Shown piece after piece: positions 1-21,901 of a stretch of DNA of 64,000 bases. A program made the translations under genes and the position numbers. The DNA comes from Candidatus Aldehydirespiratoraceae bacterium (GTDB taxonomy: Bacteria > Actinomycetota > Acidimicrobiia > Acidimicrobiales > Aldehydirespiratoraceae), in assembly GCA_965198365.1 (NCBI GenBank), contig OZ240617.1:83752-147751 (forward strand), written 5' to 3'. Each line of letters starts with the position of its first letter. Position 1 is the first letter of the stretch. The notes under the pieces were generated by a model, which was not told the DNA's origin, did no database searches, and was given only the letters and a program-made list of their open reading frames with translations.

Positions 1-517
1 GGAGCCGACCCGATCGCCGAACTATCGTGAGAGTTCGCGGGAGCATCCGATGTGGCCCGAGTTGCGCGCTATACCTAACGCTGTGCCGTTTTGTCATATC
101 TATCTAGTGCCTTATTGGCAGTTCGGTGTACTACATGCTTGAGTCCAACCCAGGACCAGGCCTTGGTCTGCTGCTCGCCTACTGGTTCGCCGGTAAGGGC
201 TTGGCCAAGCTCTCCGCACCCGGCTCGATCATCATCCACTTCTTCGGTGGTATCCATGAGGTGTACTTCCCGTACGTGTCATCATCAGTTACGCACGCGA
301 CCGCAAGGCGCAACTCGGGATCGCCTGATCTCCTCCGAGTGGCCGTATTTGACACTCTCACGCTACTGAGAGGAAAAAGTCGCTACTCTCAGTAGACGCG
401 CGGGATTCATAGTGCTACGGTCGGCCACACCTGAGCAAGGCTGTTGTGAAGGTGCTGATTCAGGTACCGAAGCCGCGGCCCGCACAGGTCTCATATTCAT
501 TTCCAATTGGGGGAGAC

Positions 518-1918
518 ATGGCCACTGATCTTGAGATGTTCGTAGGGGCCGATGGCCGCGAAGAGCAGGTAAGGGAGGTGGAAGCCCGCATCGAAGCCGA
601 CGACATCCAGTACTTGTACTGCCAGTTCCTTTCCGTCACAGGACGGATCATGGGCAAAGGCATACCGGCCAAGCATTTCGGCATGATCGCCCGCAAAGGC
701 TTCCAACTCGTCTACGGCTCCACCGCGAATTTGTTCACCGACCGTCACGGTGAATACATCGGTTACGGGCCTGAGGCCCGCGAGTTGGTCGGCTTAGCCG
801 AACCTGAGACTTTCATGCCTTTGCCGTGGGACAGTCGCACGGCACGGGTTTGGTGCACGCTGTTTCGTGGGCGTGAGGAAGAAGTCGACGGCGGAGCTTT
901 CCTCACCTCGGACTGCAGAGGCAACCTCAAGCGCATCCACGCCGAGTTCGAAGCCAAGCACGGACTGCATCTTCGTGCGGGCTGCGAGCCGGAGATGATG
1001 TGGCTGCGAGCCGACGAACACGGCAAACCCACCGTTGAGGGTTTGACCAAGCCCAACTGCTACCACATCGATCAGTTCGCGGAGTTGCAACCGCTGATCC
1101 ACAAAGTGATCGAGTACTGCGAGGCGATGGGTCTCGACATGATCCAGGGCGACCACGAAGACGCCCCCGGGCAGTTGGAACTCAACTTCAACTTCGACCG
1201 GGCCGAACTCACCTCCGACCGGCTGAGCACTTACCGTCAGGTGTGTAAGCAGGTTGGCCGGGAGTTGGGTGCGTTTCCGTGCTTCATGCCCAAGCCCTTC
1301 ATGGGCGTGTCGGCCAATGGCTGCCACCACAACATTTCGTTGTGGGACGCAGACGGCAACAACAAGTTCATGCCCGAAGGAGACAACCCACAGTTGCCCG
1401 GTCCCATCGGCATGAAGGCCATCGGGGGGATCCTCGAACATGTCCGTGCACTCACCTGCTTGACATCACCTACCGTCAACTCCTACCGCAGGTTGTGGGA
1501 CACCGGCTTCTGGGCACCTGTGTTCGCCGACTGGGGATTCCAGAACCGCACCACCGCGCTGCGCGTCAGCGCGCCGGGACGCTTCGAGTACCGCTCGGTG
1601 GACAGTGCGGTGAATCCGGCTCTGTCGTTCGCCGGTCTGCTCAAGGCGATGGACGACGGCTTGGACCGCAGCCTCGACCCGGGTCAACCCGAGGAGCGCA
1701 ACATCTACGACGCCCTGAAGGAAGGCAAACAGGTCCAGAAGATCCCGCTCACCTTGGGCGAGGCGCTTGAGGCGTTCGACAGCGACGAGGTAGTCAAGTC
1801 GGCGCTCCCCGGCGAGATGTACAGGGTGTTCATGCACTACAAGACCGACGAATGGGAGCGGTTCCTGCACACCGTCTCAGACTGGGACGTCGAAGAATAT
1901 CTCGACGTCCTGCCCTGA
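518..1918 (+). CDS. gmaS: Gamma-glutamylmethylamide synthetase (glutamine synthetase superfamily)
   Basis: GS-family motifs (GCEPEM, DHEDAPGQLELNF, FMPKPF, NGCHHNISLW, NRT..LRV, EYRSVD). First gene before the mgsABC-type trio. Start moved to ATG 518 behind a GGGGAG RBS. Confidence 0.8.
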   Translation: MATDLEMFVGADGREEQVREVEARIEADDIQYLYCQFLSVTGRIMGKGIPAKHFGMIARKGFQLVYGSTANLFTDRHGEYIGYGPEARELVGLAEPETFMPLPWDSRTARVWCTLFRGREEEVDGGAFLTSDCRGNLKRIHAEFEAKHGLHLRAGCEPEMMWLRADEHGKPTVEGLTKPNCYHIDQFAELQPLIHKVIEYCEAMGLDMIQGDHEDAPGQLELNFNFDRAELTSDRLSTYRQVCKQVGRELGAFPCFMPKPFMGVSANGCHHNISLWDADGNNKFMPEGDNPQLPGPIGMKAIGGILEHVRALTCLTSPTVNSYRRLWDTGFWAPVFADWGFQNRTTALRVSAPGRFEYRSVDSAVNPALSFAGLLKAMDDGLDRSLDPGQPEERNIYDALKEGKQVQKIPLTLGEALEAFDSDEVVKSALPGEMYRVFMHYKTDEWERFLHTVSDWDVEEYLDVLP

Positions 1919-2002
1919 TCGGCGCTGCTTCGCCGGGCTTCGGCGGGCTTCGCCTATCCAACAACAATTCACATACATCAGAACAACTAGGGAGGTAGCA
2001 CC

Positions 2003-2932
2003 ATGTGCGGCATCGCAGGAGTGATCCACCGCGACGGCACGGCCGACATTGGCGCCGAATTGACGGCCATGTTGCAAGCAATGAAGCACCGAGGGCCGGA
2101 TTCCACCGGCTACGCGGTCTATGGACCAGCCGACGATCTTGTGGTTATCCGTTTCGTGCTCGCTGAACCGAACCGCAGTACCGGTTTCGGGATGGAGGAA
2201 CGTCTGGCGCGCAACCGGTTGGAGGTCGAGTCGCGGCTCGCCAAGATCGGTGCTGAAGTGGCCACGGTCACCAGCGACACCGGTTACGCCTTTCGGGCCA
2301 CGGTCCGTTACAGCGGCGAACTCAAACCGCTGGCCGACTACCTCGAGGACGTCCCGGGTTGTGAGGTGCTGTCGCTGGGCAACTCGCTGGAGATCATCAA
2401 GGACATGGGCGATGCGGCCACAGTGAGCGACCAATACGGTTTGGGCTCGTTTCAGGGGACTCACGGCGTTGGACATGTGCGCATGGCCACCGAATCTGAG
2501 GTTGACCTGGCCAGCGCCCACCCTTATTGGGCCTACCCGTTCGCCGATGTGGCTGTGGTCCACAACGGGCAACTCACCAACTATCACCAATGGCGCCGCC
2601 GCCTCGAGCAGGCAGGCCATCGTTTCCAAAGCGAGTGCGACTCTGAGATCATCGCGGTGTACTTGGCTGAGAAAATGTCGGGCGGGTTGTCGCTGGAGAC
2701 ATCCATGAAGGACAGTCTCGACGACCTCGACGGTGTGTTCACCTACGTGTGTGTCACCGGCAACGAGCTGGGGATCGCCAAAGATGAGATGGCGGCCAAA
2801 CCACTGGTGCTGTTCGAGTCTGACGATCTGGTGGCCGTGGCCACCGAGGAAGTGTCGATCCGTACTCTGGTCAAGCGCGAGGTTGAAACCCGCGATCCGT
2901 ACGAGCGGGAGGTGTTGGTGTGGCAAGTGTAG
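2003..2932 (+). CDS. mgsA: N-methylglutamate synthase subunit A (class II glutamine amidotransferase)
   Basis: N-terminal MCGIAG, HRGPDSTG, GHVRMATES, HNGQL and CDSE motifs; GGAGG RBS; operon context. Confidence 0.8.
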   Translation: MCGIAGVIHRDGTADIGAELTAMLQAMKHRGPDSTGYAVYGPADDLVVIRFVLAEPNRSTGFGMEERLARNRLEVESRLAKIGAEVATVTSDTGYAFRATVRYSGELKPLADYLEDVPGCEVLSLGNSLEIIKDMGDAATVSDQYGLGSFQGTHGVGHVRMATESEVDLASAHPYWAYPFADVAVVHNGQLTNYHQWRRRLEQAGHRFQSECDSEIIAVYLAEKMSGGLSLETSMKDSLDDLDGVFTYVCVTGNELGIAKDEMAAKPLVLFESDDLVAVATEEVSIRTLVKREVETRDPYEREVLVWQV

Positions 2933-3711
2933 GTTCGCGCAGCGGGGTCTCTTATGACGCTCGAGGCTTGGTCGAACCCCAGGCCGAGATGCCCGACAAC
3001 ATTGAGGTCGACGGCGGCAGGGCGCGCTTCGACGCCACCGACCTCACCATCCGCCAGATCAACATGGCCTTGCGGAAACTGATCTACAACGACGGCATAG
3101 TCGATGTGACAGTGCTCAACCCGTCCTCCAAGCATTCGCTGGCGGTTGGGATCTTGAAACGCTGTCGGATCCATTTCGAAGGCAGCCCCGGTTGGTTCGC
3201 CTGTGGCCTGATCGACGGGCCCGAGGTGACAATCAACGGACGAGTGGGCTGGTCGCTCTGCGAAAACATGATGTCGGGCGTGGTCGTGGTCGAGCGCGGC
3301 GCAGGCTCGCTCACCGGAGCCGCGATCCGCGGCGGTGACCTGATCGTGAAAGGCGATGTGGGCGCTCGCACTGGCATCGACCAGAAGGGCGGCACGATCA
3401 TCGTGATGGGCGATGTGGGGATCAACACCGGGTTCATGATGCAGCGGGGCCGTCAGATCATTTGCGGCAACGCCGGCCAGAACCTGGGCGACTCGATGTA
3501 TGACGGCGAGATTTACGTGGCAGGCAAGGTGAGTTCCTTGGGAGTCGACTGCGTAGCTGGCGAATGGACCGACGACGACACCGAGTTGATCGAACGCAAG
3601 TTCCGTATCCACGGGCTGGGAGAACCGCCGCCGTTCGAGAAGTTCGTTTGCGGCAAGCAACTACACAACTACGACGCACTTGAGCCCTCCGAGCGCAAGC
3701 TCGTGATGTGA
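2920..3711 (+). CDS. mgsB: N-methylglutamate synthase subunit B (GXGXG beta-helix, GltB C-terminal-like)
   Basis: Repeated GxxG/GxGxG motifs (ENMMSG, GAAIRGG, GIDQKGG, GFMMQRG, GDSMYDG); overlaps mgsA. Confidence 0.8.
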   Translation: MASVGSRSGVSYDARGLVEPQAEMPDNIEVDGGRARFDATDLTIRQINMALRKLIYNDGIVDVTVLNPSSKHSLAVGILKRCRIHFEGSPGWFACGLIDGPEVTINGRVGWSLCENMMSGVVVVERGAGSLTGAAIRGGDLIVKGDVGARTGIDQKGGTIIVMGDVGINTGFMMQRGRQIICGNAGQNLGDSMYDGEIYVAGKVSSLGVDCVAGEWTDDDTELIERKFRIHGLGEPPPFEKFVCGKQLHNYDALEPSERKLVM

Positions 3712-3747
3712 GCCCAGACAGCATCGAGAGAACATAAGGAGACGACG

Positions 3748-5142
3748 ATGAGCGAAGTGAACAAAAGCACAGATGTGTTGGGGCAGAGCCGGATCTTCAC
3801 CCGTGAGGTAATCAACGACATCCATGTGAAGGCCGAACTGGGCCGTTACCGAATGCGAGGCTTTTCGATCTTCAAGAAGATCCCGCATTGGGACGAGTTG
3901 GTGTTTCTGCCGGGAACCCTCACCCGATTCGTGATCGAGGGTTACCGCGAGAAGTGCGAAACAAAGACTGTGCTCGGGGCTCGTTTCGCGGCCAAGCCTC
4001 TGGAGCTCGACATTCCCGTGTACATCACCGGTATGAGCTTCGGTGCTTTGTCGTTGGAGGCCAAAATGGCTTTGGCGAAGGGCGCTTCGATGGCCGGCAC
4101 CGCTACTTGCTCAGGCGAGGGCGGCATGATCCCACCCGAACGGGACCTGTCGACCAAGTGGTATTACCAGATCATTCAGAGCCGCTACGGTTTCAACCCT
4201 CATCACCTGATGTTGGCTGACGCGGTGGAGTTCTTTATCGGCCAGGGCTGCAAGGTCGGCCTCGGCGGCCACTTGATGGGCCAGAAGGTCACCGAACAGG
4301 TGGCTGAGATGCGGTCTCTGCCAGCGGGTATCGATCAACGCTCACCGGCACGGCATCCCGACTGGCTCGGTCCCGATGATCTTTCGTTGAAGATCCAGGA
4401 AGTGCGTGAAGCGACCGACTATCAGATCCCGATCCAGTTGAAGCTGGGGTCGGCCCGTGTCTATGACGATGTACGCATGGCCGCCAAGTGTGGTCCTGAT
4501 GTGATCTATCTCGACGGTGCCGAAGGCGGGACTGGCGCCGGGCCGCATCTGGCTACCGAGGAGACCGGTATTCCGCTGATGGCGGCTATCCCCGAAGCTC
4601 GTCGGGCGCTTGAAGATGTGGGCCTCGCCGACGACATCGACCTGGTCGTCGCGGGTGGTATCCGCAACGGTGGCGATGTGGCGAAATGCCTAGCGCTCGG
4701 TGCCGACGCCATCGCTATCGGCACCGCCGCGCTGATGGCTCTCAACTGCAACAAGGAGATTCCCGGCGTTACCGACTATGAGGGCACGATTGGGGTGCCC
4801 GCCGGCGAGTGCTACCACTGCCACACTGGTCGTTGCCCGGTGGGTGTCGCCACCCAGGATGTGGAACTGCGTAAACGCCTCGATGTCGATGAGGCGGCGC
4901 TGCGGGTCTACAACTTCTTGCTCACGCTCACTATGGAAGTGCAGATGCTTGCTCGAGCGTGCGGCAAGACCGACATTCATTCGTTGGAACCGGAAGACCT
5001 CGCCGCTCTCACCTATGAGGCTGCGGCCATGGCCAAGGTGCCGTTGGCCGGCACCACTTACATTCCCGGTGTCACCGAGGAGAACACTCTGACCGAGATC
5101 CGGGAGCTGTTCGACAAACACGTGATCGATGGAGGCAACTGA
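3748..5142 (+). CDS. mgsC: N-methylglutamate synthase subunit C (FMN-binding glutamate synthase family)
   Basis: GMSFGALS, SGEGGM, GQGCKVGLGG, LDGAEGGTGA, GGIRNG and the Fe-S motif CxHCHTGRCPVGVATQ. Confidence 0.85.
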   Translation: MSEVNKSTDVLGQSRIFTREVINDIHVKAELGRYRMRGFSIFKKIPHWDELVFLPGTLTRFVIEGYREKCETKTVLGARFAAKPLELDIPVYITGMSFGALSLEAKMALAKGASMAGTATCSGEGGMIPPERDLSTKWYYQIIQSRYGFNPHHLMLADAVEFFIGQGCKVGLGGHLMGQKVTEQVAEMRSLPAGIDQRSPARHPDWLGPDDLSLKIQEVREATDYQIPIQLKLGSARVYDDVRMAAKCGPDVIYLDGAEGGTGAGPHLATEETGIPLMAAIPEARRALEDVGLADDIDLVVAGGIRNGGDVAKCLALGADAIAIGTAALMALNCNKEIPGVTDYEGTIGVPAGECYHCHTGRCPVGVATQDVELRKRLDVDEAALRVYNFLLTLTMEVQMLARACGKTDIHSLEPEDLAALTYEAAAMAKVPLAGTTYIPGVTEENTLTEIRELFDKHVIDGGN

Positions 5143-5143
5143 G

Positions 5144-5599
5144 ATGGCCGGATCGGCAAGCACGGGCGAGAGCCCATCGGAAATCCGCACTGTGGCGATC
5201 GACGCTGAAGTGTTGGCCGGTAAGCGTTTCCCTTATCAAGAGGACATTACGCTGGTGGCCGACATTGATTTGCTGGCTGCAACGCCCGGGCCCGATATCA
5301 ACTGGCTTGAGGACATCACTTTGTTGGAGGAAGACGGTATGCCGGCAGTGTTTGACCGCTATTCCAACTCGTTTCTGAAGATCTATTTCGATATTCCTGA
5401 GGGTTCCGAGGATGACATCGCCCGCAAGGTGCTGATCAGGCATCTCGTGGACGGGAATTCCTATGGCATCACCTTGAAGGACATCCACTGCAAGTTCCCG
5501 CAGGTGGAACTGGGGCCGTGGGTGGAAGAGTCGCGCATTGTGGGCGAAAACTGGAAACCGACAGAGCTTGAGGGTTGGAGTGCGCCACAGGCGCATTAG
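5144..5599 (+). CDS. Acidic protein of unknown function (151 aa) in the mgs operon
   Basis: GGAGG RBS inside the mgsC 3' end, ATG 1 nt after the mgsC stop; no recognised domain. Confidence 0.75.
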   Translation: MAGSASTGESPSEIRTVAIDAEVLAGKRFPYQEDITLVADIDLLAATPGPDINWLEDITLLEEDGMPAVFDRYSNSFLKIYFDIPEGSEDDIARKVLIRHLVDGNSYGITLKDIHCKFPQVELGPWVEESRIVGENWKPTELEGWSAPQAH

Positions 5600-5636
5600 G
5601 GCCCTAGGTCAAGCCAAGAACTAACAAGGAGCCGCA

Positions 5637-6968
5637 GTGAGTCTTCCCCGCAGTTCTCGCTATGTGATCATTGGTGCTGGTATTCACGGGTTGTCCACGG
5701 CTTGGAACTTGGCCCGTGATCTGCGTTCGTCGGGGCGCGGTTCAGGTGCCGATGTGGTCGTGATCGACAAGGCCGGTGTTGGCGCCGGTGCTTCCGGGAT
5801 TGCCTGTGGGGTGATCCGCAACAACTATTTTCAGCCGGCCATGCGTGAGCTGATGGCGCATTCGGTGGATGTGTGGGAGAGCGACCCGGAAGCGTTCTCG
5901 TACCATCCGGTGGGGTATTTGCAGATCAGCCATGAGGCGATGCATGAAGATGTTGCCTCGATCCATGCTCAACAGCAGGCCATTGGTTACGCCTCGACTT
6001 TCGTGGAGGGGGCTCTAGATTCTCGCCGTCACATGTTGGGAATATTCGACGATTGGCAGGCGCAGGGCATCACCAGCGTTCTGCACGAACATCGCGGTGG
6101 TTACGCCAACAACATGGCGTCGCTCAAGGGCCTGTTGGGCAAGGCGGAGGCTGAGGGTGTGTCGGTGGTTGGAGGCGTGTCGGTGATGGGTTTTGAGCGT
6201 GACGCTGCTGGGGCTGTGACTGACGTTGTCACCGATCGGGGCAGTGTCAGCTGTGATCATGTGGTGGTGGCGGTGGGGCCCTGGGTACAGAAGATTTGGG
6301 CCATGCTCGACTTGCCAACTGTCACTGATGTGCTCGGCCGCGACGGTCAGGTGCATCGACGTCCGACTTGGACCTACATGTGTTTGCAGGAGGGCACCCT
6401 GGAGGTCGACCCGGGCTATCTCATCGACAATGCCGGCAACATGCCGCCGGTGGTGCATATCGACACCGACGCGCCGCTGTATGACGCCGATGGCCTGGTC
6501 ACTGAGGGGCCTTGGGGGGTGTACTACAAGCCCGATTTCAATTTCGGTGGTGTACAGGGCGGTTATATGCCCTACGTGGTGGACAAGCCTTCAGATCAGG
6601 TGGCGGTCGATCCGTACGGCCCGGATTCACCGGATTTTATTGTCGGTGAGGATTTCTACCGCACTTGGTCTGCGGCGCTGGCTCATTGTCAGAAGCGTTT
6701 CGAGGGCAAGGGTCATCTGATGAGCCGTGAGCCCTCCGGTGGTATCGGCAGTTTCTCTCCCGACAATTTCCCGGTGTTCGACATGTTCTGCGACAATGTG
6801 TACTTCATCGCCGACTCGAACCACGGCTACAAGATGATCGGTGTCGGCGCGCTCGTGGCCAGAGAGCTGCTGGGTGAGTCTCAGGGGTTGCTGGCTCCGT
6901 TCTGTTGGTCGCGGTATGCCACAGGGGATCTGCACCCGGTGAGTAATTCGCCGTATCCGTGGAGCTGA
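5637..6968 (+). CDS. FAD-dependent oxidoreductase, sarcosine oxidase beta / DAO family; candidate N-methylglutamate dehydrogenase
   Basis: GAGIHG dinucleotide-binding motif, GASGIACG, SPDNFPV, SNHGYK; directly downstream of mgsABC. Confidence 0.75.
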   Translation: MSLPRSSRYVIIGAGIHGLSTAWNLARDLRSSGRGSGADVVVIDKAGVGAGASGIACGVIRNNYFQPAMRELMAHSVDVWESDPEAFSYHPVGYLQISHEAMHEDVASIHAQQQAIGYASTFVEGALDSRRHMLGIFDDWQAQGITSVLHEHRGGYANNMASLKGLLGKAEAEGVSVVGGVSVMGFERDAAGAVTDVVTDRGSVSCDHVVVAVGPWVQKIWAMLDLPTVTDVLGRDGQVHRRPTWTYMCLQEGTLEVDPGYLIDNAGNMPPVVHIDTDAPLYDADGLVTEGPWGVYYKPDFNFGGVQGGYMPYVVDKPSDQVAVDPYGPDSPDFIVGEDFYRTWSAALAHCQKRFEGKGHLMSREPSGGIGSFSPDNFPVFDMFCDNVYFIADSNHGYKMIGVGALVARELLGESQGLLAPFCWSRYATGDLHPVSNSPYPWS

Positions 6969-6980
6969 GGTGACTTGCAG

Positions 6981-7412
6981 ATGAACGTGACTGGTGGTTG
7001 TGCGTGTGGCGCGGTGCGGTTCACGTTGAACGGGCCGCTGCGGCCTGTGATCAACTGTCACTGTTCGCGCTGTCGGCGTTGGACGGGCCATTTCATGGCC
7101 GGCACGAACACGCACCGGGATGATCTGTCGTTCAATCGAGGTGTCGACTCGGTGAAGTGGTGGACTCCCGACGAGGAGCCGGCCGTGGCCTATGGGTTCT
7201 GCGCTCATTGCGGGGGCAGTCTGTTCTGGCGCTCGAGTTCCAAGCCTGGGAGATACTCGATCGCAGCCGGGGCTCTCGACCCGCCCACTGGTCTTGACAC
7301 GGTGCATGCCCTGTTCACGGCCGAGGCCAGCGACTACCACCGCCTCGACCCCGATCTCCCCCACCATCCCCACGATTCAGACGGCGGCGTCCAAATCGAA
7401 GGCTGGACATAA
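6981..7412 (+). CDS. GFA/CENP-V family Zn-binding protein
   Basis: GGCACG, CHCSRC and FCAHCG cysteine pattern; GAGGTG RBS. Confidence 0.85.
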   Translation: MNVTGGCACGAVRFTLNGPLRPVINCHCSRCRRWTGHFMAGTNTHRDDLSFNRGVDSVKWWTPDEEPAVAYGFCAHCGGSLFWRSSSKPGRYSIAAGALDPPTGLDTVHALFTAEASDYHRLDPDLPHHPHDSDGGVQIEGWT

Positions 7413-7533: not shown

Positions 7534-8241
7534 GTGCTAATGCCCGATGAGCTTGAGCAACTGATCTCGCCAGCCCGTTTCCGCACCTTCGTTGAGTTCT
7601 CGTCGGGTGATCGGAAGGTTGCTGCCAAGCTGTACGAATGGACCGGTCATCTCGCCGGAGCGCTCTTTACGGACTTCCGTCACCTTGAGATCGTATTCCG
7701 CAACAAAGTTGACCAAGCGCTGATGGAATATGCCCGAACACACGATCCGGATGTCATGTCGTGGCTCGACGATTCCTGGCTCCCGGACCACACCAACGGC
7801 TGGGACGATGAGGCAAACAAGGCAATCGGAAAGGCCCGCGAGATGGCCCGCGGTCGTAACCCGTCCCATGATGCCGTAATTGCGCAGTTGATGTTCGGCT
7901 TCTGGAGATACGCGACGAAAGGCCGCTACGAGGAAGCTTTCTGGTTGCCAGCCTTAGATGGGGTGTTCACCAATATCCCTGGGGCGAACGCTGTCGAACG
8001 ACGAGTGACGTTAGAAACTGCGATGATCAATTTGAACAAGCTGCGGAATCGAATCGCTCACCATGAACCAATCTGCAAACCGTGGAAGAGGCGTACTCAG
8101 GGAGGTGTAGAACTCGTTCTCTCGGTTGACGATGTCTACAGGGATCTCGAGGATGTCCTTCGCTGGTGCGATCCATCTTCAAGCGTTCACTTCCTCAAAC
8201 AATCTCGTGTACCAGAACTCTTAGCAACACGACCGAGCTAG
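7534..8241 (+). CDS. Abi-like (Abi_2/AbiD-F) HEPN-domain protein
   Basis: LYEW...LEIVFRN, AQLMFGFW and the HEPN motif RNRIAHHEP. Confidence 0.8.
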   Translation: MLMPDELEQLISPARFRTFVEFSSGDRKVAAKLYEWTGHLAGALFTDFRHLEIVFRNKVDQALMEYARTHDPDVMSWLDDSWLPDHTNGWDDEANKAIGKAREMARGRNPSHDAVIAQLMFGFWRYATKGRYEEAFWLPALDGVFTNIPGANAVERRVTLETAMINLNKLRNRIAHHEPICKPWKRRTQGGVELVLSVDDVYRDLEDVLRWCDPSSSVHFLKQSRVPELLATRPS

Positions 8242-8339: not shown

Positions 8340-9527
8340 TCAGGCGCGGGCGCTGGGGCCGTAGGCGCAGAACATGTGGTCGTTCTCGGCGAAACGGGTG
8401 GGGCGCAACCGGTGAGGGTCGAAGGGCGGTTCGTGGCCGAGGACTATGGCCGCCACGATCTCGCCGATGGCCGGCGACAGTTTCAAGCCGTGACCTGAGA
8501 ATCCCAGGGCCAGACACAGGCCGGCGATCTCGTGGGTCCAGCCGATGAGGGGGTGGTAGTCGGGGGTGACATCGTAGGCGCCGCTGATGTGGCTGAGGGG
8601 GGTGGCGCCTCTCATGGCGGGCATGCGGGCAGCCAACGCTTGGTCGATTCGTTCCAGGTGGGCGCGCTGGTCGGCTTCGTCGCCCATCAACAGCGGGTCA
8701 TCCACGAGCGGCATTTCCGAGGGGTAGGCAGCGGCAAGGAAGCGGCGGCCCATGTCGGGGCGCAAGACGATGTTGGAGTTGCCGTCGGTGACACAGGAGT
8801 GCATCTGGGGTTGGCCGGGCTGGGTTTGCAGCATGGTCATTTCCAGCCGACGTCGTTGCACGGGCACGTGAACACCGATCGGGTCAAGCAGGTCAGTCGC
8901 CCAAGCTCCGGTTGCTGTCACTACGACGGGTGCGTCTATTTCGCCTGCGTTGGTGGACACTCCACTAAGTCGGCCACCGCTGGTTCGCAACGCTGTCACT
9001 TTGACTCCGCTGATGACCTCAGCGCCATGACCCTGAGCCGCGGTGAGCCAGCTCAGCACCATTTTCGTGACGTCGATGTAGCCGCCGTCTGGTTCGTGTG
9101 CTCCCCCTGCGAGGTCGTCGGTGATCAGCAACGGTTCAAGGGCGGCGATCTCCGCGGCGTTTACGAAGCGGGTGTCCACGCCGCAGGCTCGCCCCAGGTC
9201 GATGTTGCGGTGCAGGGCATCGAGTTGGTCTTCGATGACCAACAGCAGGTATCCGAGCTGCACATATCCGGGATCGCCGACTCCTACTTCAACACTCCAG
9301 TTTTGAATCACGTTGAACCCGTGCCGGGCCATCTGGACCAGCAGTTCGTTGGAGTAGTGCTGACGGATCTGTCCGAAGGTTCTTCCGGAGATCCCGCCCA
9401 CCGGTGGGCGTTCGTCAACGACTACTACCCGGGCATCGGATTGGGCAGCGAGTTGATAGGCGATGCTGGCACCCATGATGCCCGCGCCGACGACAACGAT
9501 GTCTGCTGTCGCCGGGGGTAGTTTCAT
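8340..9527 (-). CDS. FAD-dependent oxidoreductase (DAO/sarcosine oxidase-like)
   Basis: GAGIMG, GISGRTFGQIRQHY, YDVTPDYHP, GFSGHGLK. Start trimmed to MKLPP, 19 nt after the tmm stop. Confidence 0.8.
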   Translation of the reverse strand: MKLPPATADIVVVGAGIMGASIAYQLAAQSDARVVVVDERPPVGGISGRTFGQIRQHYSNELLVQMARHGFNVIQNWSVEVGVGDPGYVQLGYLLLVIEDQLDALHRNIDLGRACGVDTRFVNAAEIAALEPLLITDDLAGGAHEPDGGYIDVTKMVLSWLTAAQGHGAEVISGVKVTALRTSGGRLSGVSTNAGEIDAPVVVTATGAWATDLLDPIGVHVPVQRRRLEMTMLQTQPGQPQMHSCVTDGNSNIVLRPDMGRRFLAAAYPSEMPLVDDPLLMGDEADQRAHLERIDQALAARMPAMRGATPLSHISGAYDVTPDYHPLIGWTHEIAGLCLALGFSGHGLKLSPAIGEIVAAIVLGHEPPFDPHRLRPTRFAENDHMFCAYGPSARA

Positions 9528-9546
9528 GGGTCTAGCGGTGAACCCG

Positions 9547-10893
9547 TCAGGAGTCGGTGGCCAGGAACGACTCAAGCGAGTCGTCCAGGGCTTCGACCCA
9601 GTCGGTGTGGTGTGTCGGCGCAACCGTGCCGGTCATCGGTGAGGCGTGACCGTTGTCGCGGTAGCCGATGATCGACTGTTTCTTGTGCCCCTTCCAGTCC
9701 TTGAACATTTTGGAGACCAGCGGGGTGTTGAAGTCCGGGTAGTCGCTCTGGTCAAGCAGGTCTTGGGTGTATGCGCCCTGGTAGTCGATGAGTCCGTAGT
9801 CGTCTTCGATGAGATCCTCGATCGCTTGTTCCTCAGCGATTGAGCGGGCTTGCTCCTCGGCCGAGGGCAACTCGATGCGTCCGAGGATGACATCGCGGGC
9901 GTACCAGGCTTGCACGTCGAACATGTTGAACGTGTACCACTGGTCCTGCATACCTAGATACATCACCCCGTTGTCGGGCTGGAAGACCACGCCGCGGTAC
10001 AGCATTGAAGAGGCCAGGCGGTTGGTGGTGGCGAGGCGCAGGTCGTCGTCCATGTACGGGAAGTGATGCAGGTAGCCGGTGCAGGAGACGATGGCGTCGA
10101 TTTCCGTTGACGTGCCGTCAACGAAATGCACGGTGCGCCCATCGACGTGGCTGAGGATCGGTTTTTCGGTGATGCCGTCGGGCCAGTCGAATCCCATCGG
10201 GCCGCTGCGTGACGAGCAAACCACCGAGCGCGCCCCGTATTTCCAGCATTGAGAAGCGATGTCCTCAGCTGAGTAGCTCGATCCGATAATCATCACGTTC
10301 TGGTCGGTGAACTGGACGGCGTCACGGAAGTCGTGCGCGTGCATCAGGGTGCCGCCGAAGGTGTCGTAGCCGGGGTATTGCGGCATGTTGGGCGTGGAGA
10401 AGTGCCCGCTGGCCACTACCACGTAGTCGAACTCTTCGGTGCTGGCCGTGTCGGTTTCGTGGCTGTGTACCCGTAGGACGAAACGGCCGGTTTCAGGTGA
10501 GCGGCTGACGCTGCGTACTGCCTGGTTGAAGCGGATGTATTTGCGGATGCCGCTGCGGTTGGCGCGGCCCACGATGTAGTCGTAGAGCACTTCTCGCGGC
10601 GGGAAGGAGCCGATGGGCCTGCCGAAGTGTTCTTCGAAGGTGTAGTCGGCGAATTCCAGGCATTCTTTGGGGCCGTTGGACCACAGGTAGCGGTACATGC
10701 TCCCGTGGCACGGCTCACCGTGTTCGTCTAGGCCGGTGCGCCAGGTGTAGTTCCAGAGCCCACCCCAGTCGCTTTGTTTTTCGTAGCAGACCAGTTCCGG
10801 CATTTCCGCGCCGTCGGCTGCTTTGGCGCTTGCAAATGCGTGTAACTGCGCTAGTCCGCATGGTCCAGCACCGATAATAGCTACCCGTGTCAT
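9547..10893 (-). CDS. tmm: Trimethylamine monooxygenase (bacterial FMO)
   Basis: MTRVAIIGAGPCG, EKQSDWGGLWNYTWRTG, HGSMYRYLWSNGPKE, FMO motif with HAHDFR, GSSYSAEDI; closely matches known Tmm sequences as I recall them. Confidence 0.88.
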   Translation of the reverse strand: MTRVAIIGAGPCGLAQLHAFASAKAADGAEMPELVCYEKQSDWGGLWNYTWRTGLDEHGEPCHGSMYRYLWSNGPKECLEFADYTFEEHFGRPIGSFPPREVLYDYIVGRANRSGIRKYIRFNQAVRSVSRSPETGRFVLRVHSHETDTASTEEFDYVVVASGHFSTPNMPQYPGYDTFGGTLMHAHDFRDAVQFTDQNVMIIGSSYSAEDIASQCWKYGARSVVCSSRSGPMGFDWPDGITEKPILSHVDGRTVHFVDGTSTEIDAIVSCTGYLHHFPYMDDDLRLATTNRLASSMLYRGVVFQPDNGVMYLGMQDQWYTFNMFDVQAWYARDVILGRIELPSAEEQARSIAEEQAIEDLIEDDYGLIDYQGAYTQDLLDQSDYPDFNTPLVSKMFKDWKGHKKQSIIGYRDNGHASPMTGTVAPTHHTDWVEALDDSLESFLATDS

Positions 10894-11077
10894 AGTCCAA
10901 ATCTCCCCTGTGGTTGGATCTACCTCTAACGAGAGTAAAAACTTAGCGCACTCGGAGGTCTCCTGCATAGGAAGACCAAAACAGTCTAAAAACAGGCTCT
11001 AAGCAAGCAATGGGGATTCCATCCTATTTACCCAAGTGGTGGGGTGCTCAGGGTAAATGCTGTAAATAGGCGGTTGG

Positions 11078-17167: not shown

Positions 17168-19528
17168 TTAGGGCGCGGGAACGTCGCGGACTCGGGATTT
17201 GGTGGGGTCGTAGAAGGGGAATTGAACGACGGTTGCGGGGATGCGTTTTTGGTGACCGTCGATCTTGCCGACTTCGACTTGCGTGCCGATCTCTGCAAAT
17301 TCGACGGCCATGCGACACAACGCCACGTTCTTGCGCAGAGTCGGAGAGATAGTGCCGCTGGTTATCGAGCCCACCTGCGCTCGGCCCACGTAGACACCGT
17401 CGTCGAGCGCTGCGGGTTCTCCTCCTTGAAGTTCCAGACCAACTAAACGGCGCTGTGGGTTGTCTCTACGTTTCAGCAGCGCTTCTCGTCCGATGAAGTC
17501 GTCTTCTTTGGTCTTGAGCGGGACGGTGAAGCCGATGCCTGCTTCGTACGGGTCAGTCTGGTCGCAGAACTCATAGCCGGCGAAGATCAGGCCCGCCTCG
17601 ATGCGCAGGATGTCGAGCGCTTCGAGACCCATCGGCACGAGGCCGTGCTCGGCGCCGGCAGCAAAGACCGCGTCCCAGAGGGCTGGGGCGTTTGACGGGT
17701 GACAGAAGATCTCAAAGCCGAGCTCTCCGGTGTAGCCGGTGCGCGAGACGAGCAGGGATATGCCGTTGTGGTCGCCGATGCGGGCGATGGCGAAGCGGAA
17801 CCATCCGAGTTCGCTGACGTTGGGCTGGTCAGGGCGTGTCCAGATGATCTTTTCGAGGATCTTGCGGCTGTTGGGGCCTTGGACTTGCAGGTTGTGGAGC
17901 TGGTCGGTGGAGTCCTTGACCCAGGCCCGCAGGCCGCGTTCTTGTGCTTGTTGGCGTATCCAGAGGCCGCTGATGTCGCTGCCGCCGATCCAACGGAAGT
18001 TCTCACGGCTCAGGCGGAAGACCGTGCCGTCGTCGATCATGCCGCCGGTTTCGTAGCACATGGCTGTGTAGACGACCTGGCCGTCGGAGAGCTTGCGGAT
18101 GTTGCGGGTGACGCAGGTCTGCATCAGCAGTTCGGCGTCGGGGCCTGCGACTTCGTATTTACGCAAGGGCGAGAGGTCGATGGCGGCGGCTGCTTGTCGG
18201 CAGGCCCAGTACTCTTCGGTGGCGCCGTGATCGCGGTAGGAGTTGGCGAGCCAGTAGCCGTTGTATTCGCTGAAGTTGCGGGTGACCGCAGCGGTGCGAG
18301 GGTGAAAGCCTGTGTCTTTGGTGAGTTCGGCTTCTGAGTCGGCGGTCATGCGGAATGCGGTCGCTTTCTTGAACATGTTGTTCGCGGGGTAGACGCGAAC
18401 TTGAATATCGGTTGGGTACCAGCCGTTGGCTGCGTCGATGTCACATGGGCAGGCCGTCGACACGCATACGAGATCTTCCAATGCTCGCAGCAGCACGTAG
18501 TCGCCAGGTCGTGACCAGGGTTCATCGAAGTAGATCTGGTTGTTGTCGTCGACGTGGGTGTTGTAGAAGAAGTTGATGGCTTCCCAGCCTCGCCGGGCCG
18601 CCACACCGTAGGGGGACCAGACGGTGTTGATGTTGTCGGTGCAGTTGATGTGGCCGGGGAATCCCATCTCTTCGTAGTAGCGGGAGTTGCAGGCGGTGTT
18701 GAAGGTGTCGTGTCGCCCGACGGTGTCTTGCAAAACTTCAACGAGGGGTTGCATATCGGCGTTGTAGAACTTGGAATACAGCCCGGGACCGGGGCAGGTG
18801 GAACCCATCAGGGTTCGGGTGATGGTGCCGTCGAGGCAGTTGGCTTTGCCTTGTTCAAGGTCGCTGACAGCGAAACATTGAAAGTCTGAGCATTGGCGGC
18901 CTTCTACGTCGACCACTTGGAAGTAGTCGCCTTTGCGGACTTCGTAGGCTTTCCCGGTTGAGGCTTGGACAGTGAAGTCGTTTGTTGGGTCCGCTAGTGG
19001 GGCGGGCAGATAGATTTCACCGGGTTCGGGCAGCGAGGCGCGGTAGATGTAGACAATGAGGTCGGTTGGCGGGTTCTGGTCTTGGGGGTTCATCGGCCCG
19101 CCGGGGGCGGCTACGACCACCGCTATTGATTGCACCGCCGTGAAACTGGCTTTGCTGTCCGCTGGTGAATCAGCTCCGAACACCAGAGCGGGTCGGGCTT
19201 GGCTGAGATCAATGCCTCGTCGTTCGAGTCCAGCTCGGACCCGTCGAGCGTCGGTGAGTGGGGCGGACAGAATCGTACGGGTTCCGTTGCCTGAGTTGGT
19301 GTCGGCTGCGCTAGCCCCTAGTAGACCCGGGTCGCTCACCCCGTCAGCATCGAAGGCACTCAGCTCGCATTGCTGGCGACCTTCGGGGTCGATGATTTCG
19401 ATTCGGTCTCCGGCGTTGAGCGCTAACGCGGTGGCTCCGCCACCGGTTACTCGATATCGCTCGGTGCCCGGGTCGAGTAGCCACAAGCCGGGCTCAAGCA
19501 CTCGTGGCAATACAGAACTAATGCTCAT
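17168..19528 (-). CDS. tdm: Trimethylamine N-oxide demethylase (DUF1989 domain plus GcvT-like domain)
   Basis: 786 aa with GRQCSDFQ, RHDTFNTACN, GHINCTDN, ACPCDIDAANGW (metal-binding Cys/His pattern of Tdm), then the aminomethyltransferase part DLSPLRK, RTGYTGELG, RIEAG. Confidence 0.85.
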   Translation of the reverse strand: MSISSVLPRVLEPGLWLLDPGTERYRVTGGGATALALNAGDRIEIIDPEGRQQCELSAFDADGVSDPGLLGASAADTNSGNGTRTILSAPLTDARRVRAGLERRGIDLSQARPALVFGADSPADSKASFTAVQSIAVVVAAPGGPMNPQDQNPPTDLIVYIYRASLPEPGEIYLPAPLADPTNDFTVQASTGKAYEVRKGDYFQVVDVEGRQCSDFQCFAVSDLEQGKANCLDGTITRTLMGSTCPGPGLYSKFYNADMQPLVEVLQDTVGRHDTFNTACNSRYYEEMGFPGHINCTDNINTVWSPYGVAARRGWEAINFFYNTHVDDNNQIYFDEPWSRPGDYVLLRALEDLVCVSTACPCDIDAANGWYPTDIQVRVYPANNMFKKATAFRMTADSEAELTKDTGFHPRTAAVTRNFSEYNGYWLANSYRDHGATEEYWACRQAAAAIDLSPLRKYEVAGPDAELLMQTCVTRNIRKLSDGQVVYTAMCYETGGMIDDGTVFRLSRENFRWIGGSDISGLWIRQQAQERGLRAWVKDSTDQLHNLQVQGPNSRKILEKIIWTRPDQPNVSELGWFRFAIARIGDHNGISLLVSRTGYTGELGFEIFCHPSNAPALWDAVFAAGAEHGLVPMGLEALDILRIEAGLIFAGYEFCDQTDPYEAGIGFTVPLKTKEDDFIGREALLKRRDNPQRRLVGLELQGGEPAALDDGVYVGRAQVGSITSGTISPTLRKNVALCRMAVEFAEIGTQVEVGKIDGHQKRIPATVVQFPFYDPTKSRVRDVPAP

Positions 19529-20515: not shown

Positions 20516-21901
20516 TTATTTGAGGTCGGCGTAGGCCGCTCGTAGCACGGCTTCGGCTGACTCTTCGGAACCGTCGGCGTTGATGATCGGTTCAGTGGCA
20601 CGGCCGAACTCCGGATAGAAGTCCGTCTCGAACTCGGCCATGTCGAGGCCCTCGATCTCTACTTCGGGTGGGACCCTCAGCAAGTTCAGCTTCTTGAGGA
20701 TTCCAGAACCGATGTAGCCGGTGAGGAATGCCAACGGGAAGAGGGTTGCGACACCCACGAGCTGACCAAGGAACGAGGTTTCCACCAGCGCTGCACCGGT
20801 CGGATAACCCCCGGCGACAATACCGACAAGTAGTACGCCCCACATGCCCATGACGCCGTGGACTGATATTGCGCCAACAGCGTCGTCGATGCGGGCTTTC
20901 TGCTCGATCCAGTTGCCTGCGGCATACGCAAGCCCGGCGGAGAAGAACGCCAGAATCAGGACCAGCGACGGGTTGTAGATATCGGCGCCGGCCGAAACTG
21001 CCACGACCCCGGCGAGTCCACCAGACAGTGTCCAGAACGGATCACCCTTGGCGAAGATGTACCCGCCGGCGAAGCCGCCTGCGAAGCCCATCGTGATCGT
21101 GAAGGTGATTGCTGACAGTGTCGCTGGGTTGAAGTAGATGTTTGCCCAACCCGGCGTGGTGTCGGCGGTGATCGCTAGACAAGCCGCGTAGAACGCGTAG
21201 AACGCCGTGAAGATGATCATCAGGCCCATCAACGTCAGATGGAGGTTGTGCGGCTTGAACGCTCGCGTGCCTCCGTTCCTGTCGTATCGGCCGAGTCTGG
21301 GACCCAAGTTGAAGATTATGCCTAAGGCGAAGATTCCGGCGATGCCGTGGACCACGCCTGATGCGGCGAAGTCGTGGTAGCCGAAGTGGATGGTCATCCA
21401 ACCTCCGTAGCTCCAGCCCCAGGCTGCCGCGACCACCCAGACCAGACCACCCATAAGAGCGGTCAGCCACAGGTAGGCCGAGATGCGGATGCGTTCGAGC
21501 ACCGCGCCCGACATGATCGAACCTGTCGTCCAAGAGAACAACACGAATGCGGCCCAGAAGACCCCACTAATGTTGTCGCCAAGGTTGGGTCCCATCGAGC
21601 CGTCCCATGGAACGCCGTAGCCGTCACCGCAGAAATACGCTCCTTCTCCCCCGGTGCCGTTCGGCGATGTGGTTGGCAAGAATCCTTCTTCCATACAGAA
21701 GTAGACCCACCACCCGAGGTAGTAGAACGTCGGTGTGACCACCGCGATTGTCATGATGTTCTTCATTGCCGTGGACATGATGTTCTTGCGGCGGCTTACG
21801 CCGGCTTCGTAGGTCATGAAACCCACGTGCAGCAACCACATGATCGCGACGGTGAAGAAGTAATAGGCCTCTGTGAACACTACTGACGTGTCCATAGGCA
21901 C
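20516..21901 (-). CDS. amt: Amt/Mep/Rh family ammonium or methylammonium channel
   Basis: GFMTYEAG..RRKN, GAVLERIR, HDFAASGVVHG, RIDDAVGAISVHG (twin-His). Confidence 0.88.
   Translation of the reverse strand: MPMDTSVVFTEAYYFFTVAIMWLLHVGFMTYEAGVSRRKNIMSTAMKNIMTIAVVTPTFYYLGWWVYFCMEEGFLPTTSPNGTGGEGAYFCGDGYGVPWDGSMGPNLGDNISGVFWAAFVLFSWTTGSIMSGAVLERIRISAYLWLTALMGGLVWVVAAAWGWSYGGWMTIHFGYHDFAASGVVHGIAGIFALGIIFNLGPRLGRYDRNGGTRAFKPHNLHLTLMGLMIIFTAFYAFYAACLAITADTTPGWANIYFNPATLSAITFTITMGFAGGFAGGYIFAKGDPFWTLSGGLAGVVAVSAGADIYNPSLVLILAFFSAGLAYAAGNWIEQKARIDDAVGAISVHGVMGMWGVLLVGIVAGGYPTGAALVETSFLGQLVGVATLFPLAFLTGYIGSGILKKLNLLRVPPEVEIEGLDMAEFETDFYPEFGRATEPIINADGSEESAEAVLRAAYADLK

Follow-up and report, generated by a model that had tools for sequence, protein, structure and literature searches.

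Organization of the locus

We analysed a 64,000-nucleotide (nt) stretch of the genome of Candidatus Aldehydirespiratoraceae bacterium (GCA_965198365.1; OZ240617.1, positions 83,752-147,751), hereafter the window, and asked what role is played there by a small open reading frame (ORF) of 151 amino acids (aa). This ORF lies between a gene that resembles mgsC, which encodes the flavin mononucleotide (FMN) subunit of N-methylglutamate (NMG) synthase, and a gene for a flavoprotein of the DAO family. According to the results described below, we find it fairly probable that a paralogous Mgs-like synthase has the small protein as its fourth subunit or obligate partner, and that the DAO flavoprotein is a separate oxidase of the same module. 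The host genome is a single contig of 3.75 Mb with 60% GC, and its relatives are Acidimicrobiia of the sponge type (Ca. Aldehydirespiratoraceae, Ca. Poriferisodalis).

The genes form a tight row on the plus strand, from 446 to 7412, which can be described as a six- or seven-gene module. The first encodes a glutamine synthetase (GS)-like gamma-glutamyl-amine ligase, a paralogue of the GmaS type (446..1918; PF00120, 277 bits), whose true start is likely the ATG at 518 (MATDLEMFVG...). It is followed by an MgsA-like class-II (Ntn) glutamine-amidotransferase subunit (2003..2932; GATase_6/7), an MgsB-like subunit with the GXGXG beta-helix (2920..3711; PF01493), whose gene overlaps mgsA by 13 nt, and an MgsC-like FMN subunit with a Glu_synthase domain (3748..5142; PF01645, 314 bits), which belongs to a group that we call clade 1. 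These four consecutive genes reproduce the operon layout of GmaS plus MgsABC. Next come the orphan acidic 151-aa protein (5144..5599), a single-chain DAO-family flavin adenine dinucleotide (FAD) flavoprotein distantly similar to SoxB and to dimethylglycine oxidase (DMGO) (5637..6968; PF01266), and a protein of the GFA family, of the glutathione-dependent formaldehyde-activating type (6975..7412; PF04828, 73.3 bits against a gathering threshold of 24.3). An earlier note on this DNA had described an acidic ORF without a domain, tightly coupled to mgsC and followed by a lone DAO gene, and both ORFs are indeed as it described them. A scan for promoters and terminators gave sites no more frequent than expected by chance.

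A small protein under strong constraint

The small ORF extends from an ATG at 5144 to a TAG at 5597-5599. It begins 1 nt past the stop codon of the mgsC-like gene (TGA, 5140-5142), and a GGAGG sequence is found 8 nt upstream, inside mgsC. The encoded protein has a pI of 4.34, with 28 acidic residues (Asp plus Glu) versus 12 basic ones (Lys plus Arg), and a single Cys located within the motif DIHCKFP. No match was obtained in Pfam or NCBIfam at E<=0.01. When 22 members of the family were compared with Pfam at E<=10, only noise was recovered (LED_rpt, LcnG-beta, Lsr2), and neither SoxD nor SoxG appeared; a profile search of the PDB returned a single chance match (E=0.12).

Homologues of the small protein are numerous. 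We found 6387 of them in a collection of 5.8 billion proteins, and a full HMMER pass over 1.84 billion representatives at 50% identity gave 179 clusters. The 17 cluster representatives that we inspected were either complete proteins, about 70% identical, or frameshifted read-throughs. As judged from these searches, the family forms a single compact group, outside which no remote relatives were detected. Its divergent members are annotated as 'hypothetical protein' or carry no product name, and a literature search turned up no description of a fourth Mgs subunit and no account of gmaS from Acidimicrobiia. Longer proteins that seemed to be fusions (617, 596, 575 and 409 aa; P0132, P0199, P0272 and P0204) were rejected as frameshifted metagenome read-throughs, with out-of-frame stretches rich in Arg, Pro and Ala. 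Because they are frameshift artefacts, the apparent fusions of the small protein with MgsC or with a flavoprotein are no evidence for either partner.

The gene occurs in at least 468 species genomes, and the best 80 of these are all Actinomycetota (Acidimicrobiia, Solirubrobacterales, Gaiellales and Thermoleophilaceae). Between classes the small protein is about 75% identical, whereas the GS-like protein reaches about 53% and MgsA 59-65%. An alignment of 22 sequences contains 65 columns that are invariant across classes, including the terminal His, and the dN/dS ratio is 0.07-0.10 at saturated dS. The ORF could in principle be an irrelevant conserved passenger, or even be mis-called, as the lack of any domain might suggest; such a strong selection signal, together with the thousands of homologues, the invariant columns and the fixed position and coupling of the gene, effectively refutes this idea, to which we give practically no credence. 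The Cys of the HCK motif is invariant in the 22-sequence alignment, and HTK and HAK variants exist among some of the 50% cluster representatives. Since this residue is not universal, a redox or catalytic thiol is unlikely. The proposal that an amine-catabolic module here includes the small protein as a conserved and so far undescribed component, also made in the earlier note, is thus borne out.

The synthase is a divergent paralogue that retains Fe-S ligands

We then compared the first four genes of the row with the canonical NMG synthase genes. The GS-like protein of the window scores 315.6 bits against TIGR03105, under which proteobacterial GmaS is named 'type III GS', and so falls below the cut-off of 469.6, whereas the second GS copy of the host reaches 560 bits and GmaS of Paracoccus and Methylobacterium 643-697 bits. 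Indeed, the host genome possesses a second, canonical gmaS-mgsABC cluster outside the window (705018-710930), in which an XRE regulator and GmaS are encoded on the minus strand and mgsA'B'C' on the plus strand; a 266-aa ORF comes next. We took as a reference the plasmid of Paracoccus alcaliphilus, where the locus has the textbook order dmm - mgsABC - gmaS - mgdABCD - folD - purU. The identity to the plasmid proteins is 75% for MgsC, 59% for MgsB and 49% for MgsA in the second cluster of the host, versus 54%, 35% and 34% in the window. In a maximum-likelihood tree, the window MgsC falls into clade 1, which is monophyletic and very short-branched, with values of 97-100 in the Shimodaira-Hasegawa-like approximate likelihood ratio test (SH-aLRT). 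The second MgsC of the host nests with those of Paracoccus, Methylobacterium and Acinetobacter (SH-aLRT 99-100), in a group of the proteobacterial and mycobacterial type. By these sequence criteria the window cluster is a divergent paralogue and not a canonical NMG synthase, and the label 'mgsC' needs qualifying.

Clade-1 MgsC proteins differ from the canonical ones in several features. Their Cys residues align with the three 3Fe-4S ligands of glutamate synthase (GltS), as seen by phmmer with 1ea0_A and 2vdc_A (alnC-mgC, yhC-rqC, grC-ntC), and they are conserved in 15/15 clade-1 sequences. The ligands of the Azospirillum brasilense enzyme are C1102, C1108 and C1113. In the window, the three ligand Cys, together with a fourth Cys carried by an 18-residue insert between the first and second ligands, are found at 4735-4800 (MgsC-like residues ~330-352; LNCNKEIPGVTDYEGTIGVPAGECYHCHTGRCPVG). 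The crown-group canonical MgsC proteins, in which all of these Cys have been lost, have Asp, Trp and Asp at the ligand positions. As far as an alignment can tell, the retained Cys imply that clade-1 MgsC carries an Fe-S cluster, and it may also have an external redox partner. Moreover, the clade-1 proteins share a conserved C-terminal amphipathic helix, VTEExxLxEIRxLFxKH, that is present in no canonical MgsC. The MgsB-like protein is 263 aa long, versus 236 aa for the canonical MgsB of the host, and glxC measures 690 nt in Methylobacterium and 675 nt in Paracoccus; as called, the window subunit is therefore about 30-40 aa longer than canonical MgsB.

The canonical synthase is built of three subunits, and a fourth gene is present at 80/80 clade-1 loci. 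No comparable ORF was found 3' of mgsC in four proteobacterial loci (Paracoccus, Methylobacterium, Acinetobacter and Burkholderia). The clade-1 module shares its genome with a canonical gmaS-mgsABC cluster in about 10 of 14 cases, and most carriers have retained an Mgs cluster of the canonical or intermediate type. This coexistence implies that the two systems have different substrates or roles.

The mgsC-like gene is the invariant neighbour of the small gene

Which of its two neighbours does the small protein work with? We fetched the best 80 of the small-gene genomes with 8-kb flanks, covering Acidimicrobiia to Thermoleophilia, and we drew 401 Actinomycetota genomes evenly as a phylum sample. 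The small gene lies directly 3' of an mgsC-like gene in all 80 loci, and also in the 12/12 determinable genomes of the phylum sample. The distance from the mgsC stop to the small start is between -4 and +2 nt in 69/80 loci, so that translational coupling is the usual arrangement. The gaps between the small gene and the DAO gene cluster around 40 nt and reach kilobases. The DAO gene adjoins the small gene in 73 of the 80 loci; it is located elsewhere in the flank in three and is not in the 8-kb flank in four. In Solirubrobacterales and Gaiellales genomes, and in the genome G130, the DAO orthologue is separated from the small gene by 15-22 kb or located on a different contig. At one locus from a Solirubrobacterales metagenome-assembled genome (L092, 8829-10055), the small gene is followed by a flavin amine oxidase gene of PF01593, and the DAO orthologue is on the same contig at a distance of about 18 kb.

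The distribution across the phylum sample also associates the small gene with the synthase. The small gene occurs in 14/401 genomes, and clade-1 MgsC (86-91% identity) is found in 13 of these 14 and in no others of the 401; in the fourteenth, where no clade-1 MgsC was detected, the small gene is at a contig edge. MgsC proteins of the canonical or intermediate types, at 52-58% identity, occur in 19 of the 401 genomes, many of which have no small gene. DAO relatives are found in all 14 small-gene genomes (50-71% identity) and also in 10 of the sampled genomes from which both the small gene and clade-1 MgsC are missing (62-71% identity). Within the genus and family of the window, six relatives that have no small gene also have no clade-1 MgsC and no DAO orthologue; the whole module is gained and lost there as a unit. 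Finally, mirror-tree partial correlations of the small protein were +0.31 with MgsB, +0.29 with MgsC and +0.16 with MgsA, as compared with -0.02 for DAO and -0.16 for the GS-like protein. As pairwise distances are not independent, we count this as weak support.

These data bear directly on the central proposal of the earlier note, namely that the small protein and the DAO constitute a two-component NMG dehydrogenase that replaces MgdABCD, with the small protein as a structural, electron-carrier or C1 (one-carbon)-carrier subunit. The frequent adjacency of the two genes is in line with this proposal, as are the presence of the DAO in every small-gene genome checked and the joint loss of both genes in the six relatives. 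The GFA gene 3' of DAO is also what one would expect if free formaldehyde were released. However, the small gene stays with mgsC when the DAO gene is distant, on another contig or replaced, and DAO relatives occur in genomes that have no small gene. The small protein carries no cofactor motif, its Cys is replaceable and it has no similarity of the SoxD, SoxG or GcvH type, while the residual co-variation with DAO is nil. Furthermore, an enzyme of the SoxBDAG type is encoded in the host genome, as described below. We consequently regard the two-component dehydrogenase as very improbable, and the data give no support to a pairing of the small protein with the DAO. It is likely, in our opinion, that the partner of the small protein is the synthase and not the DAO, and it probably binds the MgsC-like subunit or the MgsB/MgsC interface.

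The flavoprotein and the four-subunit enzyme

The DAO gene starts with a GTG at 5637 and ends at 6968 (443 aa), and a ribosome-binding site, AAGGAG, is found within the 37-nt spacer that separates it from the small ORF. The protein scores 119.4 bits against PF01266 (gathering threshold 27.9) over residues 9-408. On the soxB model TIGR01373 it obtains 68.5 bits, far under the cut-off of 529.45 bits, as compared with 675 bits for MgdA of Paracoccus; the view that the lone DAO is not an orthologue of SoxB or MgdA is supported. Among proteins of solved structure, its best matches are dimethylglycine oxidase and SoxB, with scores of only 35-37 bits. No SoxA, SoxD or SoxG gene was found in the window operon. 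We regard the DAO as the candidate N-methyl-amino-acid oxidase or dehydrogenase of the module, acting as a separate single chain.

DAO relatives also exist apart from the module. In one module-less genome (G230, L104:7987-13150), a relative 67% identical to the window DAO is encoded between genes for a GcvT-type aminomethyltransferase and GTP cyclohydrolase I, near genes for a BCCT transporter and ABC transporters. This arrangement looks like a split dimethylglycine oxidase in a betaine-type locus. A recognisable context was present at three of the four examined DAO loci that have no small gene, of the GcvT/BCCT type in one and soxB-soxA in two.

The earlier note had counted a four-subunit enzyme elsewhere in the genome against its own proposal, and such an enzyme, at least in form, is present. 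A soxB-soxD-soxA-soxG locus is found on the minus strand at 781270-786254, about 696 kb from the window operon, beside a divergently oriented 305-aa gene whose N-terminus appears by eye to be of the LysR type. The SoxB of this locus scores 471 bits on TIGR01373; it matches Corynebacterium SoxB with 369 bits and Paracoccus MgdA with 322 bits, a slight difference, and the enzyme may act on sarcosine or on NMG. Since soxBDAG is encoded elsewhere, gene content does not force the view that the DAO replaces a missing MgdABCD. In addition, SoxD is found in 33/34 module-bearing genomes, often 6-38 kb from the module. The statement that there is a single sarcosine-oxidase-beta-like gene thus holds for the operon and fails beyond it, given the second DAO gene at 8340-9623 (minus strand) and the complete soxBDAG locus.

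In two other genomes, a soxD-type gene lies near an intermediate or canonical MgsC-like gene, at about 100 nt in one (G303, C83:15321-16923) and about 900 nt in the other (G436, C1:2167339-2169773). This suggests that a linkage of the mgs-mgd type exists in Actinomycetota for systems outside clade 1.

Methylated-amine surroundings

The module is part of a methylated-amine and C1 island. The GFA gene at its end was found in 15/80 related flanks, and an 'aldehyde-activating protein' is also encoded 3' of glnT on a Methylobacterium plasmid. Further downstream, on the minus strand, a flavin monooxygenase resembles Tmm, that is, of the trimethylamine monooxygenase type (9547..10968; PF00743, FMO-like; 32/80 related flanks), and a second DAO flavoprotein is encoded directly downstream of this tmm gene (8340..9623; PF01266, 219 bits; 37/80 related flanks). 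The pair formed by the second DAO and the Tmm-like gene recurs beside the module in many related loci and is a candidate for another demethylation step. A trimethylamine N-oxide (TMAO) demethylase of the Tdm type, combining DUF1989 and GcvT, is also on the minus strand (17168..19528; PF09347, PF01571 and PF08669); it was found in 18/80 related flanks, including one Solirubrobacterales locus. The 461-aa ORF at 20516-21901 (minus strand) has relatives in three related flanks. The island also holds genes for a GcvT-like protein, serine-glyoxylate aminotransferase, malyl-CoA lyase and malate thiokinase. It is this context of tmm, tdm and serine-cycle genes that suggests a methylated amine as the substrate of the Mgs-like synthase.

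An Abi_2-like gene (7534-8241, plus strand; weak Pfam match, E=5.6e-4) separates the GFA gene from the tmm-DAO pair. The flanks of 33 related loci (L069-L101) contained no homologue of it, so the gene looks like a local insertion.

Proposed role of the small protein

We favour, with moderate confidence, the view that the small protein belongs to the Mgs-like synthase, either as a stoichiometric fourth subunit or as an obligate assembly partner. The protein would be made by translational coupling with the MgsC-like FMN/Fe-S subunit, and the clade-specific C-terminal helix of MgsC would be a candidate docking element for it. In a first step, the GS-like enzyme would gamma-glutamylate a methylated amine at the expense of ATP. 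The amidotransferase subunit would then free the amine into the synthase, where the FMN subunit would fix it on C2 of glutamate/2-oxoglutarate to yield an N-methylated glutamate. The DAO would finally demethylate an N-methyl amino acid belonging to the pathway oxidatively, releasing formaldehyde that may be trapped by the adjacent GFA protein.

Several observations weigh against this assignment. First, we infer the contact between the small protein and the synthase rather than observe it, and the same applies to the substrate of the module and to each catalytic step. Second, some MgsC-like proteins keep the Fe-S Cys in loci that have no small gene (L108, L109, L113 and a Burkholderia plasmid). 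The existence of such proteins means that the small protein marks clade 1, and not the Fe-S feature as such. Third, a DAO orthologue is present in 22/22 small-gene genomes checked, and because the DAO is always present and is lost together with the small gene in the family, co-occurrence alone does not exclude a contact with the DAO. In the DAO tree, the DAOs of genomes that have no small gene lie outside the module-linked DAO clade of the Acidimicrobiia, although in the same family. They may, from this placement, be a functionally different sister group; therefore, the occurrence of DAO without the small protein holds at the family level, not necessarily for the same substrate.

Structure prediction gives no further help to this assignment. 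Modelled alone with AlphaFold2 from 22 sequences, the small protein folds only moderately (predicted local distance difference test, pLDDT, 66.9). The model is extended, with a short beta-meander and one long helix, and the C-terminal third is disordered. A Foldseek search of this model against the PDB gave nothing at E<=0.001 (best E=1.3); as there is no recognisable fold, the role of the protein is unreadable from its structure. The partly disordered model is compatible with a chain that folds on its partner, and is not evidence for that. We also attempted co-folding, using the in-frame MgsC-TGA-linker-small read-through of locus L056 with paired and unpaired rows; with this shallow alignment the mean pLDDT was 39.8, and the TIM barrel of MgsC was itself unmodelled.

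Adjacency and coupling are compatible with a chaperone or a regulator as well. The small protein might thus be an assembly factor, a cofactor-insertion chaperone, or a regulator or inhibitor, serving either the Mgs-like synthase or the GS-like ligase. The linkage data speak for this as they do for a subunit, the protein is acidic and its model is extended and partly disordered, and the canonical MgsABC works without such a protein, as the four proteobacterial loci indicate. Small inactivating factors of glutamine synthetase exist in cyanobacteria and offer an analogy for a regulator. However, coupling over 1 nt implies that the protein and MgsC are made in a ratio of about 1:1, as one would expect of a subunit more than of a catalytic chaperone. 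Moreover, the constraint extends over the whole length of the protein, at about 75% identity between classes, which suggests a large permanent interface, and the residual co-variation with the GS-like protein is negative. For these reasons we hold this explanation to be unlikely, while keeping it in mind.

Alternatively, the small protein could be an adaptor that docks the DAO to the Fe-S side of MgsC, so that the electrons of demethylation are recycled into the reductive N-alkylation of 2-oxoglutarate. The net reaction would then be redox-neutral: methylamine + 2-oxoglutarate -> glutamate + formaldehyde. Clade-1 MgsC does keep the 3Fe-4S ligands, through which glutamate synthase passes on the electrons of an external partner, no electron acceptor has been identified for the DAO, and the gene order is MgsC, small protein, DAO. 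Against this, the scheme is purely inferential, the DAO gene is often unlinked, MgsC of the Fe-S type exists where there is no small gene, and the small protein has no redox motif. We see very little chance that this scheme is the right one.

The dimethylamine step

The module may also be considered in relation to the degradation of dimethylamine. DmmC (PF11927) is absent from 34/34 module-bearing genomes, whereas the same search finds DmmC on the Paracoccus plasmid. In the host genome, tblastn detected no DmmA, DmmB or DmmC, though Tmm- and Tdm-like genes are present. The conversion of dimethylamine to monomethylamine in module-bearing Actinomycetota is unaccounted for by Dmm genes. One could imagine, with chemistry that is speculative, that the clade-1 module is the dimethylamine step of Actinomycetota and proceeds via N,N-dimethylglutamate. 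The GS-like enzyme would gamma-glutamylate dimethylamine, and the four-subunit Fe-S synthase, its amine channel or active site adapted by the small protein, would form N,N-dimethylglutamate. The DMGO-like DAO would take off the first methyl group as free formaldehyde, trapped by the GFA protein, and an enzyme of the SoxBDAG/Mgd type would take off the second. Such a scheme would explain the absence of DmmC, the tmm and tdm neighbours, the coexistence with a canonical gmaS-mgsABC cluster and the presence of both a DAO and a SoxD-type enzyme alongside the module. Nevertheless, the dimethylamine step has a simpler candidate in the second DAO, next to tmm, and we rate the N,N-dimethylglutamate route as improbable.

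What is at stake is the way in which the NMG pathway is recognised. The pathway has been treated as a fixed set, GmaS plus MgsABC plus MgdABCD, and surveys of methylamine genes in marine and soil environments use those markers. A distinct and strongly conserved variant occurs in hundreds of Actinomycetota species, including sponge-symbiont Acidimicrobiia. Its unusual features are Fe-S ligands in the FMN subunit, an unannotated fourth protein and a single-chain flavoprotein in the operon. Should the small protein prove to be a genuine subunit, it would define a protein family that is new and would add a new architecture to the glutamate-synthase-like enzymes that fix amines, and its gene would be a clean genomic marker of the variant. 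In addition, the dimethylamine step of actinobacterial trimethylamine and TMAO degradation becomes directly testable.

Comparison with known systems

The closest known system is the canonical NMG module, gmaS-mgsABC (= glnT-glxBCD), of Methyloversatilis, Methylocella, Methylobacterium and Paracoccus. Both systems bring the same four protein types together in one operon, in the company of tmm, tdm, C1 assimilation genes and GFA, and both are expected to activate the amine on glutamate and then to demethylate oxidatively. They differ in that the window operon has a single-chain DAO and not mgdABCD. In methylotrophic Mycobacterium, gmaS-mgsABC is found with mgdABCD-like genes elsewhere in the genome (PMC5023230).

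The MgsA-, MgsB- and MgsC-like proteins are the counterparts of the amidotransferase, beta-helix and FMN domains of glutamate synthase (GltB/GltS alpha; PDB 1ea0, 2vdc, 7mfm and 1llw). In the window, however, the polypeptide is split in three and has no central domain (no PF04898 match), there is no GltD-like partner in the operon, and no counterpart of the small protein was detected in GltS.

With SoxBDAG/MgdABCD, the DAO shares the FAD fold and the region GxGxxG...G(I/T)A(C/I)(G/V)(V/I)(I/V)R(N/S)NY of SoxB, and the expected chemistry is likewise oxidative N-demethylation; the small protein, in contrast, is unrelated to SoxD or SoxG. Lastly, DMGO (PDB 1pj5) is the best solved-structure match of the window DAO, although the similarity amounts to about 37 bits and covers the N-terminal half only. 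The window DAO is devoid of the fused GcvT/tetrahydrofolate domain of DMGO, and a GFA protein follows it instead.

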